Source of the DNA: a virus
Taxonomy: Duplodnaviria; Heunggongvirae; Uroviricota; Caudoviricetes
Length of the DNA stretch: 64,000 nucleotides
IMG/VR virus record: IMGVR_UViG_3300025765_000001
Strand: one strand, 5' to 3'
Part shown: in pieces, positions 34,820 to 55,154 of the stretch
Layout of the letters: every line of letters begins with the position of its first letter
Position numbering within the stretch: position 1 is the first letter of the stretch
Program-made: the position numbers and the translations under genes
The notes under the pieces: model-generated
The model's input: the letters and a program-made list of their open reading frames with translations, nothing else
Told to the model about the DNA's origin: nothing
Databases searched by the model: none

Positions 34820-36061
34820 CTAAACCTTGCTCCCTGCGAGCAGTTCTTGCAGGGAGACTTCGCCTCGGAGTTTTTCGCTCCGACACCAGATGTTGCCAAC
34901 AAACTCTTTTAGGTCTGCCAGACGAACCTGTAATCCTGTGAGGACGACTTCAACATTGTCGTTCAGATGCTTCCACATTGACCATGAATGTACTTTGCGA
35001 TTTCGGTACTTTTCTGCAAGAGTTCCCAAAACCAGTTCTTTCACTTTCTTTGCGTCAGCCTTATAGAATGACAACTTCTCGTTGTACCCAAGACCACGCC
35101 GACCTATCACGAAGGCGGCTGACTCATGGATACTTGTCTTGTGCATCCACCTGTACTTGTACTTGCCAATGATACTGGTGAACGCTGGATTTACTTTCTC
35201 GTACTGGATGCCGTTCTCCACACACTTGCGTTCCAGCAAAGTGATGAACTTCTTCCAGACAAAGTTGCTCTGCTTTCTCTTCCTCTTCTTGCTACCAACC
35301 TTGTCCTTGTCAAACTTCAAGTCCTCAAAAACGATCCCCTTGCCACGCTCCAGAGCGTAGCCGATGACCTTCTTGACCAAACAGCCAATGTCGTAGTTCC
35401 GCTTCTCCCTGCTGCCGTAAAGGATACGGTTGTTGATGAATGTCTCGGTAGCGACCAAGTTACCGTCTGCGGCTACATCAGCCACGGCGATACGATCAGG
35501 GTTCGTATCCACGCCGATGACGCCGTTCTTGAAGGTCGTGGTGACTGGCGGCTCATCCACCTGAAAGTCAATAATGACCTTGAAGTGCGTCTCATCCTTC
35601 CTTTTGAGCCTGACGTTGTACGCCTGCCCACTCGCCAGCATGATCTTCAACTCCTGCTGGTATTTGTCCGGCACAAACAACTTAAACGTCGCCCACTTCC
35701 TCGTCCCAACGGTGATGCGGAGCGTATCGTCTACGATCCTGATGTTGAGGTTGCCCTTCTGCGTCTTGTCGCCACGACAATAGATTTGGCTGTCTCGCCT
35801 CTTCAACCACTCGTCTTTCGTGATCGCACCGGCTTTCATGTCTTCCCATGCTTTACGACCACCGAAAACTACTTTTTTGCCTTTGAGTCGGGTGTTGTAC
35901 GCTTGAGCCTGAACTACGGCGTCGGATACCTGTCTGGTGTTCAACATCTGGTACTTGGCTTTTGCAGCCTTCCGCACGTCGTTGAACTCAAGTTTATTCT
36001 TTGAGAACCGACAGTACGAGAAGCGGACGCAGGACTGGAAATCTCTGATGAGTTGATCCAG
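34820..36061 (-). mobile_element. tnpB: IS200/IS605-related TnpB-like RuvC protein (Zn-finger-less subtype), 5'-truncated
   Basis: GVDTN (RuvC-I), VFEDLKF (RuvC-II), VNPAFTSIIG, HESAAFVIGRRGLG; frame open upstream (LDQLIRDFQSCVRFSY) without ATG; no tnpA nearby. Confidence 0.85.
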
Positions 36062-38678: not shown

Positions 38679-39331
38679 GGTATTGGGCAGGCGTTATGCG
38701 AGGCTGCAAGCATTCTCCGTTTAATCCGCACTGTGAGTCTGACATCGCCAGTGTGTTACCATTACACCACCCCCTCAGTAGTAGTAGTTGGGCGAAAGTG
38801 AGGGAGATCGAAATTGAATCGACATCCCGGCGAGCTTTGTTTTTAAGTGCGAACCTCGATTTCGCAGCCCTGCCCTGAGTTTAACCTAGAGTGATAGCTT
38901 GACACTGCGTTTCCAGTGAGATGTAACGAGGCTTATGACGCCCCGTTGCCTTCCAATCAGCCACCCCACGATAAGGGTTGAGGGAACAATCCGTGTTCCA
39001 CAGCACCGTTCAGAGTGCCAGTCTATATCATTAGACGCTCAACCTTTCGAGACTATCCTAGTCTCTGCGGCCTTCCGTGGTTGCCATCCGTAGACTTCAC
39101 CATCCTTGGTATGAGCATCCTCGCTCATTTGGGTTTGTGCCTGTCCTGGCCGAGCCATCCAACGCTCGCCGTTGAGCAATACCTTCCTTGGAAACGGTGG
39201 CCTTCCTAGCTCTACAAACCCTGCTCTCCAAAGCAGTCGTGGGGGCAGGAATCGAACCTGCATATTCACCACACCAAAATGAAACTAAGCCTAAGCCTGT
39301 CACTCAATACACACTTGTCAGTGTGCTTCCC
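38641..39331 (-). ncRNA. large structured ncRNA with two circularly permuted tRNA-like domains and a GGA-hairpin insert
   Basis: T-arms at 39245-39261 and 38807-38823, each followed by acceptor strands and then D-arms; long-range stems; no convincing ORF; 5' end approximate. Confidence 0.8.
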
Positions 39332-39497
39332 TAAAATATCGTCCTTCGCCGAACTGTCTATAGTAATTTGCCAAGATCGGCGAATTGTTGTTTTGTTAGG
39401 GCTGGCGGCTGCCGCCGCCAGCCCCAGAGTCTAAGAATCCAAAGGCCCGTCCTCCCTCAGATTCTTCGACTCACAGATACGTCCAGGCCCACTCGAC

Positions 39498-41290: not shown

Positions 41291-41767
41291 ATGACCAGTC
41301 TAATTCGTCGTAACGACAAATTGTCTACGCTCCGAGAAGATATCTTCTGGCCGCTGGAGCAACATTTCAACAACTTCTTCAACGAATTCTTCAAAGGGTC
41401 CAGCCTTCTCGACGGCGTTAAAGCCAGTTCTGGCTATCCACGCATGGATGTGCTGGTAGAGGACGACTATCTAACCGTTAAAATTGCTGTGCCGGGACTC
41501 AGCAGAGATAATCTCAAGGTCGAAGTTCTTCCCGACCGCATTCTACGAATCAGCGGCCAAATGTCCGAAGAATACCACTCGTCCAAAGACGCCAAAATGT
41601 ATGTACAAGAACTCCGTAAAGGCCAGTTCTCTAGACAACTCGCTCTGCCTGATTGGGTAGAAGGCGATCCGCAAGCAAGTCTCAAAGACGGTATCTTGAA
41701 ACTCCAATGGAAGGTACAAGAACCAGCCAAAGAAGAAACGAAACTGATCGAAGTGAAGGCAGAATAA
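41291..41767 (+). CDS. small heat-shock protein (Hsp20/alpha-crystallin)
   Basis: YPRMDV, VPGL....L.V, E...G.FSR...LP, ASLKDGILKL. Confidence 0.92.
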   Translation: MTSLIRRNDKLSTLREDIFWPLEQHFNNFFNEFFKGSSLLDGVKASSGYPRMDVLVEDDYLTVKIAVPGLSRDNLKVEVLPDRILRISGQMSEEYHSSKDAKMYVQELRKGQFSRQLALPDWVEGDPQASLKDGILKLQWKVQEPAKEETKLIEVKAE

Positions 41768-53684: not shown

Positions 53685-55154
53685 TTAGTCGTCTTTCATG
53701 AACTTTTCGACTTCCATATCGTCCACGATCTTGTTCTTCTTGAACTCGTCCTCATCGCCCTTGGCTTTACCAGATTTTACGGCGTCATCGAACTTCGTGG
53801 TCTTTCTCCAACCGGCAAACTTCTTGACGTGTTTAGCCCACCAAGGTCTCCGGTTTCTCTCTGTGCCTTTGATCTTGAACATATCTACCCAATCTTCGAT
53901 CTGTTGTTTGGATAGACCGGTTCCTTCTCGCTGAGCCATCATCTTCGGCAGATGTTCTGGTGCGAATTCCTTAAGCTTCAACAGGAAGCAAACGGCATTC
54001 TTTTCGTCGTCGCCCCAGCCCGACTTTTTTATCTGGCCGTTGTCGTCTTCGTAATCACCAGCTAGAGCCTTCTCGACGGCTTCGACAGGATTGTGTTGGA
54101 GCAACCATGCCAAGGCAAGGGCTTTGTCCTTCTTGTCGGAAATCTCAACCGGGACGCCCGAAGGCGGATCGAACTTGAGTCCTGGGAAGACCTTTTTGAG
54201 TAGATCGGTCTTCTTGTACATGTTGATATAGCACTTTGGATCGATATCTGGGTGTAGCAGACCCTTGAGAAACTCTTCTTTCACCTGATCCCCTGGCACG
54301 CCGTCTAGGTCACGGAATCTGCCGATAGCTTTCTCGATCTTCTCGTCCATTGGACCCTTACCATAGCGGCAATGCAGTCTCACGGCACGCATGACACGAA
54401 TCTTGTCTTCCTTGAATTTCTGCTCTGGGTCGCCGATTGTCTTGATAACACCTTGCATTGTGTCGTAGTGCCCAGTCTCGGTTGGATCGTATAACTTAGT
54501 GTTGGGGCCGTCCGATTTACTCAACTCGATGTAATTTGCGTTCATGGTCAAGTCACGGCCTTGGGCGTCATCCTTGGGGTTATCGGTGAAATCGGCGTTA
54601 GCCGAGCCAAACGAAACCTTGGGGTCACGTCTCATGGTATTGATGTCAAACTCCTCGCCCTCGACCGTGGCCTTGATAGAGTATGCCTTCTTCTCCTTGC
54701 TATTGTCTTTGGCTCCGCAGTTCCAGATGAGCTTGTCACCTTCCTTTGCCACTTCTGGCTTAAAGGTGAGTTTGAGGTTTTCAGTCGGACAATCCCCAGC
54801 CATCTTGAAGCCAGCGGAGTGTAAAATCTGTGCGGTTTGTTCAGGAGTGGCGTTTGTTACCAAGCTGTATTTTCTAACAGACTTGCCACGGAGGAAGTCA
54901 CGCACAGAGCCTCCGGTGAGGAAGAGACTCTTCTTAGGCATCGTCATTTCCTTAGTGGTGTCGCCCATGATCTTTACTTCGGCACTCTTCACGAATGCAT
55001 CAATAATCGGACGTAGTTTCGGGGGTGGAACGAAACCTGGATCAATCTGGGTGAACTTCTTCTTCCAGTCTTTGTCGGCTCCACTTTCGCCACTTCCAGA
55101 AGGGTTGTCGCCTTCCTTCAGCAACACATAGTCTTTGAATGATTTGAAACTCAT
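53685..55154 (-). CDS. CCA-adding/poly(A) polymerase family protein, catalytic Asp residues substituted
   Basis: GGSVRD, (D)A.GRDLTMNA, EDKIRVMRAVR; DxD position reads KYS. Confidence 0.85.
   Translation of the reverse strand: MSFKSFKDYVLLKEGDNPSGSGESGADKDWKKKFTQIDPGFVPPPKLRPIIDAFVKSAEVKIMGDTTKEMTMPKKSLFLTGGSVRDFLRGKSVRKYSLVTNATPEQTAQILHSAGFKMAGDCPTENLKLTFKPEVAKEGDKLIWNCGAKDNSKEKKAYSIKATVEGEEFDINTMRRDPKVSFGSANADFTDNPKDDAQGRDLTMNANYIELSKSDGPNTKLYDPTETGHYDTMQGVIKTIGDPEQKFKEDKIRVMRAVRLHCRYGKGPMDEKIEKAIGRFRDLDGVPGDQVKEEFLKGLLHPDIDPKCYINMYKKTDLLKKVFPGLKFDPPSGVPVEISDKKDKALALAWLLQHNPVEAVEKALAGDYEDDNGQIKKSGWGDDEKNAVCFLLKLKEFAPEHLPKMMAQREGTGLSKQQIEDWVDMFKIKGTERNRRPWWAKHVKKFAGWRKTTKFDDAVKSGKAKGDEDEFKKNKIVDDMEVEKFMKDD

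Follow-up and report, generated by a model that had tools for sequence, protein, structure and literature searches.

The 64,000-nt stretch of DNA analysed here (the window) comes from the Caudoviricetes virus IMGVR_UViG_3300025765_000001 (hereafter the phage), where it is part of a 436-kb record (G000:C1:342608-406607), and it carries on its minus strand a structured RNA lying directly downstream of a gene for a DUF7873 protein. We found that domain A of this RNA (39279-38911) is the first of two circularly permuted tRNA-mimic domains, and that it holds an anticodon-like hairpin which is real and under selection, with a conserved YCAU core in its loop. The explanation to which we incline, with moderate confidence, is that domain A is a tRNA-shaped protein-recruiting domain, in which an anticodon-like recognition hairpin was acquired or retained and whose acceptor loop was the insertion site for a sponge-like module.

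Read 5′ to 3′ on the minus strand, domain A begins with the 5′ strand of a closing helix at the variable-arm position (TTTTGGTG, also written UUUUGGUG, 39279-39272), which continues with GGUG, the whole strand covering 39279-39267 in the minimum free energy (MFE) fold. It is followed by a T arm (GCAGG-UUCGAUU-CCUGC, 39261-39245), the acceptor 3′ strand CCCCACG (39244-39238), an A at the discriminator position (39237) and, in the acceptor loop, a multi-hairpin, GGA-rich, sponge-like insert of 265 nt (39236-38972). The acceptor 5′ strand CGUGGGG (CGTGGGG in DNA, 38970-38964), which pairs with 39244-39238 in the MFE fold, leads through a U8-like UG dinucleotide (38963-38962) into a D arm (GCU-GAUUGGAA-GGC, 38961-38948) in which the GG of a D loop is present. 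The anticodon-like hairpin (38947-38925) comes immediately afterwards, with an 8-bp stem and a 7-nt loop (AACGGGGC, 38947-38940; GUCAUAA, 38939-38933; GCCUCGUU, 38932-38925) that places the CAU at 38937-38935. The 3′ strand of the closing helix (38923-38909) reads CAUC, U and CACUGGAAAC, and its core (38918-38911) is CACTGGAA, also written CACUGGAA.

Reading the minus strand over 39330-38850 confirmed the letters and coordinates given in the initial annotation, and all helices of domain A lie on that strand within 39279-38911. Furthermore, every one of these helices, from the T arm to the closing helix, came back in an unconstrained MFE fold of 39300-38900. Calculated as a duplex, 39279-39267 with 38923-38909 gives -12.2 kcal/mol for the closing helix. 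The proposal that domain A is a full cloverleaf opened at the variable arm is topologically correct, the exit helix standing where a long variable arm would be, and the 7-nt loop with its U33-CAU-A37 geometry is true of the window's own loop, on a stem that had rightly been described as longer than the canonical 5 bp. With the Rfam tRNA model only the T arm matches, at 20.4 bits against a threshold of 29. ARAGORN called no tRNA or tmRNA at the locus in its native order or elsewhere in the window, Rfam at gathering scores gave no match anywhere in the window and, at E ≤ 10, gave solely this partial tRNA match together with chance-level small RNA matches. A blastn search with the locus against 50,697 phage records returned no match.

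The evidence that the hairpin is maintained comes from a clade of seven distinct sequences, the phage and the loci L090, L091, L496, L094, L009 and L495, whose DUF7873 proteins are the closest to that of the phage (63-89% identical). The loops read GUCAUAA in the window, AUCAUCU in L090, AAUCAUCA in L091, GAUCAUCA in L496, ACCAUUU in L094, AUCAUUU in L009 and AUCAUUC in L495. The initial annotation had said beforehand that a CAU loop not conserved among homologues would count against it; the YCAU core is kept in all seven of these closest sequences while the stems covary, so the proposal is not refuted on that count. Indeed, stem strands pair at 6.6 of 7 positions with their own partners and at 4.7 of 7 when strands are swapped between sequences. 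In a MAFFT alignment of the seven, the hairpin is 85% paired, with five of its eight pairs changed on both sides, the T arm is 100% and the D arm 90.5% paired, and four of the seven acceptor pairs change on both sides. The proposed structure as a whole is 84.6% paired, against 38-48% when the partners are slid, and its covariation score was reached by none of 500 shuffles. Since the stems change with compensation while the structure and the loop core persist, we conclude that the hairpin is under selection. All seven sequences also form the closing helix as a duplex (-7 to -17 kcal/mol), which L090 keeps through GU-to-GC changes.

Across most of the family a single nucleotide separates the D arm from the strand that pairs just 5′ of the T arm, which is the topology of YrlA and leaves no anticodon arm; the hairpin of the seven-sequence clade is inserted exactly between that nucleotide and the closing strand. 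Other lineages (L125, L149, L099, L101 and L229) carry unrelated hairpins at the same site: in L125 a stem of the canonical 5 bp carries the 7-nt loop CUAAUAC, and in the other four the loops are 5-9 nt long. Either an ancestral anticodon arm was repeatedly lost from this site, or the site is a permissive expansion point. The hairpin and the acceptor-loop insert are both restricted to particular clades.

The window RNA belongs to a family of double tRNA-mimic RNAs linked to DUF7873. The gene directly upstream of it on the same strand (40238-39498) encodes a 246-aa protein that matches Pfam PF25283 with an E value of 1.1e-97. At least 1575 DUF7873 homologues were found, distributed over Planctomycetota, Verrucomicrobiota, Actinomycetota, Chloroflexota, Cyanobacteria, Deinococcales and others, and an alignment-based scan of IMG/VR contigs found at least 374 DUF7873-encoding stretches, where a single-protein scan of viral contigs had given no match. 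In nearly all of 80 genome loci the DUF7873 gene is followed, at distances of about 100 and 250 nt, by one or two T-loop motifs, and the genes flanking the DUF7873-RNA pair vary from locus to locus while the pairing itself is conserved. Alignment of 61 downstream regions gave a consensus of about 330 nt, for which RNAalifold proposed 45 pairs, 41 of them with compensatory changes; the helices are two T arms, two loop-closed 7-bp acceptor stems, two D arms and long-range helices closing domain B, and the T arm covaries across these 61 members. The motifs CUAUCRCUCYAG and UUAAACG are conserved family-wide and present in the window RNA. Moreover, a hidden Markov model (HMM) of the family, built from 75 relatives with the phage and L090 left out and run with nhmmer, found its best matches in the phage genome at 38983-38710 (E 1.8e-11) and 39306-39235 (E 4.8e-7), and what separates these two matches is precisely the 265-nt insert.

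This family is widespread and apparently undescribed in Rfam 15 and in the literature that we searched. A scan of 20 relatives' loci against Rfam 15 gave no entry for it, with just one weak tRNA match, and the literature search found no paper on DUF7873. The association of the gene with the RNA is not universal, because no tRNA-mimic RNA was recognisable in the 300-560 nt inspected downstream of the DUF7873 genes of L097/L098, L498, L499 and L500, several of which have phage-like contexts. A degenerate D-arm DNA pattern gave chance matches only in viral and genome contigs. As for the protein, sequence search of the PDB returned no relative of DUF7873, and PADLOC, PHROGs and NCBIfam held nothing for it. 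Structural matches of an AlphaFold2 model (pLDDT 86.7) to Cas7 (E ~0.01, TM ~0.12) and to helical bundles were too weak and were not used.

The complete RNA unit would be about 685 nt long (approximately 39325-38641), bounded by a putative promoter-like site obtained from a consensus scan (39360-39333; -35 TAGACA, 16-nt spacer, -10 TATTTT) and by an intrinsic terminator (38678-38641), in which a 12-bp stem (38678-38648) precedes a U run. Its outer helix, P1, pairs GAGUGA (39305-39300) with UCACUC (38894-38889); it is 100% paired in the seven relatives and appears as GGAGCG/CGCUCC in the family consensus, its 3′ strand lying within the family-wide motif CUAUCACUCUAG (38897-38886). RNAalifold on the trimmed core of the family alignment adds a CUGA/UCAG helix after P1. 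Domain B, the second permuted tRNA-like domain (38876-38684), has a T arm, a 7-bp acceptor stem closed by a 22-nt loop, a D arm and the GGAUUAAACGG motif; it is covered by the HMM match at 38983-38710, and the family-wide domain B helices covary. The leader holds the hexamer repeats GGCUUA GGCUUA (39297-39285). Across the family such leader repeats take the form RRCUNA in three to four copies, with the consensus GCUGAA ACUGAA GCUCAG ACUGA, and L090 has four (GGCUUA, GGCUGA, GGCUAA and GGCUCA); their 6-nt period suggests a repeated protein-binding track.

The insert that separates the two halves of the acceptor stem is found as a large GGA-rich segment only in the phage (265 nt) and, in related form, in its closest relative L090 (178 nt), the two sharing a 3′ substructure. 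The phage insert contains 12 GGA motifs, compared with 6.7 ± 2.1 in shuffled sequences, and seven of the 12 are mostly unpaired in the predicted fold; that of L090 contains nine, compared with 4.5 ± 1.8, of which six are mostly unpaired. The phage record also holds two CsrA-domain open reading frames (ORFs; G000:C1:240884-241039 on the plus strand and 249140-249295 on the minus strand, 90 and 54 bits), the first lying inside a 319-aa ORF, and their products are possible partners of the insert. This GGA enrichment, with over half of the motifs mostly unpaired, together with the two CsrA-domain ORFs, makes a Csr/Rsm-type sponge a reasonable reading of the insert, which we treat as a candidate. 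The insert itself has no significant Rfam match (CsrC, 10.4 bits, E 2).

Is the conserved loop that of a Met- or Ile2-like tRNA, as the initial annotation proposed? The four-arm topology and the conserved CAU loop of that proposal stand; the Met/Ile2 identity is unlikely. In the strong form of the idea, domain A would be a functional Met- or Ile2-like tRNA, or a close mimic of one, whose CAU loop is read by MetRS, TilS or the ribosome, the processed RNA being charged or entering translation. Such a tRNA could draw on the GUCAUAA loop of the window, on A73, and on the fact that ARAGORN, once the permutation was undone in silico, called tRNA-Met(cat) for five of the seven sequences. However, ARAGORN proved permissive in a control, where it also called assorted tRNAs in family members devoid of the hairpin, up to about 50 of 148 constructs, and because of this the un-permuted calls are weak evidence only. 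Among the seven, the only loop to resemble the UCAUAA of Met tRNAs is that of the window (G-U-CAU-A-A). The hairpin stems have 6-8 bp instead of the canonical five (in L496, 4 bp and an interrupted extension), two of the seven loops are 8 nt long, five of the seven carry C or U at position 37, and a purine occupies position 32, so that neither the window nor its relatives present the canonical anticodon arm (5-bp stem, 7-nt loop, Y32, U33, R37). In the window, the 8-bp stem would shift the loop about 3 bp farther from the elbow. There is also no C1xA72 mismatch, and the acceptor pairs of domain A differ from the Met and Ile2 identity sets of E. coli. ARAGORN found two ordinary tRNA(CAU) genes among the 62 tRNAs of the phage, which has its own tmRNA as well; with these two and some 60 other tRNAs at hand, a further Met or Ile2 tRNA would meet no obvious need, and the phage record gave no TilS homologue above the cut-off. 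Because the arm breaks the anticodon-arm rules, Met- or Ile2-like decoding or charging is unlikely, and we regard a Met/Ile2-like identity, and a working tRNA of this kind, as very improbable. At the other extreme, the hairpin could be a lineage-specific expansion segment at a permissive site, of no tRNA meaning, with an incidental CAU. The lack of any hairpin at this site in most family members and the unrelated hairpins of the five other lineages would agree with this, but the stems of the clade have changed at five of eight positions with the loop core still YCAU, which points to selection on the loop, and the canonical 5-bp, 7-nt geometry of the L125 hairpin hints at a real anticodon-arm ancestry. 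We find a meaningless expansion segment improbable.

The remaining alternatives concern what happens at the acceptor stem and which protein the RNA serves. RNase P could cut 5′ of C38970, with RNase Z or exonucleases trimming after A39237, thereby freeing the 265-nt GGA module as a sponge; what is left would be a tRNA mimic in two pieces, ending in CCA and joined through the acceptor stem, the closing helix and P1. Permuted genes are well known to give two-piece tmRNAs, which is a precedent for such an arrangement. The 7-bp stem, A73, the canonical T arm and the D loop are RNase P determinants, and in 88 family members the domain A acceptor stem has 7 bp in 85 and A73 in 81. The family shows a strong enrichment of CCA or C74 behind the discriminator (C stands at position 74 in 61 of 88 members in domain A and in 76 of 88 in domain B), and the phage encodes two ORFs of the PolyA_pol/CCA-adding nucleotidyltransferase family (504 and 746 aa; window ~54444-54926, minus strand, and G000:C1:323566-323937, minus strand). 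In addition, M1 RNA cleaves the YrlA RNA of M. smegmatis in vitro; the closed acceptor of that RNA is 7 bp long, and in vivo the RNA bears CCA (PMC4201824). On the other side, neither S. Typhimurium YrlA nor D. radiodurans Yrn1 undergoes cleavage (PMC4201824), positions 74-76 in domain A of the phage are CUG and not CCA, and CsrA binding would not require a free insert. In both domains the closing loops are length-variable (median 9 nt, range 4-162 nt in the sampled set, 265 nt in the phage), and most family members close the acceptor stem with 4-10 nt, which leaves nothing to release; since the closing loops of 80 or more other members have a median length of 9 nt, excision is not a requirement of the whole family, and the dominance of short closed loops fits an uncut RNA. 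Excision of the insert by RNase P and RNase Z is thus plausible by analogy and from family statistics, and the full course of events as described is in our estimate possible, if rather unlikely. A broader version, in which host RNase P/Z processing of a four-armed tRNA-Met-like cloverleaf frees a CsrA-type sponge and makes a two-piece CCA-ended mimic whose CAU loop engages Met- or initiator-specific machinery or AUG start sites, would couple the release of a regulatory RNA to the tRNA-maturation pathway; we hold it to be quite improbable. Finally, the RNA might be a Ro60-bound YrlA-type Y RNA, its tRNA-like domains tethering the phage TROVE protein to another factor. The permuted topology is the same as that of YrlA, the phage has a TROVE-domain ORF, and jumbo phages with TROVE proteins and tRNA-like partners have been described (PMC7824862). 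Yet the window RNA scores 10.9 bits with RF02553 against a gathering score of 69, the local scan gave no YrlA match at E ≤ 10, the window lacks an exact copy of the published GNCGAAN0-1G motif, the TROVE ORF is about 228 kb away, and the RNA is tightly linked to DUF7873 in hundreds of genomes with varying flanking genes. A Ro60 partnership therefore seems to us hardly probable. The TROVE/Ro60-like ORF (654 aa, G000:C1:153323-154177, plus strand) is the sole TROVE ORF of the record and has no YrlA-model match nearby.

We return to the protein-recruiting domain that we favour. Domain A would act as a tRNA-shaped handle inside one long RNA, which from its gene linkage probably forms a ribonucleoprotein (RNP) with DUF7873, and not as a decoding or chargeable tRNA. 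The conserved UCAU loop would make specific contact with a partner, either protein or RNA; inspection by eye across the relatives found no conserved partner complementary to it in the D loop of domain B, the leader or the insert. The acceptor-closing loop would tolerate insertions and here carry GGA hairpins of the CsrA-binding type, presented or stabilised by the stable tRNA-like fold, while the remainder of the RNA would leave through the helix at the variable-arm position. Of this scheme we infer that the RNA stays in one piece, that it forms an RNP, that the insert functions as a sponge, and what the loop does; directly shown are the structure with its conservation and covariation, the membership of the DUF7873-linked family, and the confinement of hairpin and insert to particular clades. 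Several points weigh against it. The closing helix is only 49% paired column by column in the MAFFT alignment, a poor support that arises because the register of the helix differs between sequences. The hairpin clade consists of seven sequences of one lineage, and part of the loop conservation could be shared ancestry. Foldseek and VIA-align searches against the PDB gave no recognisable fold or RNA-binding domain for DUF7873. Lastly, positions 74-76 of the closing loops are CCA in 22 of 88 members in domain A and 28 of 88 in domain B, far above chance; with this enrichment, and with the M. smegmatis YrlA being cut at the equivalent place, cleavage may be part of the biology of the family.

Compared with known systems, the window RNA is closest in topology to the YrlA Y RNAs (RF02553; Chen et al. 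2014, PMC4201824), which share the permuted succession of T arm, loop-closed acceptor and D arm with both ends leaving through a long helix, which have members in phages, and of which the M. smegmatis member is cut by RNase P and receives CCA. It differs from them in falling below the model threshold, in lying directly downstream of DUF7873 and not beside Ro60, in having two tandem tRNA-like domains with hexamer repeats, in the 265-nt acceptor-loop insert, and in the fourth arm of the phage clade, which puts the exit helix at the variable-arm position and not at that of the anticodon stem. With typical DUF7873-linked RNAs it shares gene order, the two domains and both family-wide motifs; the YCAU hairpin sets the phage clade apart from them, and the large GGA-rich insert further distinguishes the phage and L090. 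The insert alone resembles the CsrB/RsmZ sponges in its multiple predicted hairpins, whose loops would present GGA, often as AGGAUG, and in the CsrA homologues encoded by the same phage, but those sponges are free small RNAs whereas the phage module is embedded in a tRNA-like acceptor stem, and CsrA binding to it is a prediction. Permuted tRNA genes occur in red algae, and with these and with two-piece tmRNAs the locus has in common an acceptor 3′ half upstream of the 5′ half, an intervening segment, and a conceivable maturation by end processing. It departs from the red-algal genes in its non-canonical arm geometry and in having neither a bulge-helix-bulge motif nor a circularisation logic. 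A permuted tmRNA was considered and rejected: there is no tag frame, no pseudoknot, no G3:U70 (the third acceptor pair is U:A) and no ARAGORN call, and the phage has a separate tmRNA.

The window RNA is apparently a new variant of YrlA-like tRNA mimics. To our knowledge, bacterial tRNA mimics of the Y RNA type are known only as Ro60 partners, and without an anticodon arm. Three features are unusual here: the full set of tRNA arms, the conserved anticodon-like loop, and the acceptor loop on which a large sponge-like module is docked. The phage, of 436 kb, also codes for CsrA homologues, a TROVE protein, CCA-adding family enzymes, a tmRNA and some 60 tRNAs. Should the RNA be cleaved at the acceptor stem, it would exemplify in nature how tRNA processing can set a regulatory RNA free; should it stay whole, it would amount to a "tRNA scaffold" of natural origin that displays an RNA module. 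In both cases it supplies a defined construct with which to study what the DUF7873 RNA-protein pair does, and its UCAU loop and insert are clade-specific features open to mutation.

Other features of the window and of the phage record deserve mention. The tmRNA of the phage (G000:C1:100789-101150) is of standard form, with the tag GETPAYRMAA, and the tRNA genes are clustered at ~12-18 kb and ~165-193 kb. Among them are tRNAs whose anticodons are CUA and UCA; these are possible suppressors and may point to a reassignment of stop codons. Directly after the DUF7873 stop codon, a GC-rich hairpin (GGGCUGGCGGC...GCCGCCAGCCC, 39398-39425, minus strand) without a U run, with weak, chance-level Rfam matches only (P26 and Acido-1), may separate the mRNA from the RNA unit. 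Elsewhere in the window, a 385-aa ORF (34820-35977, minus strand) has a sub-threshold match to the TNB domain of Cas12f1-like/TnpB proteins (25.5 against 26.3 bits), and near the locus an Hsp20/alpha-crystallin ORF (41291-41767) is encoded on the plus strand (E 2.8e-15).

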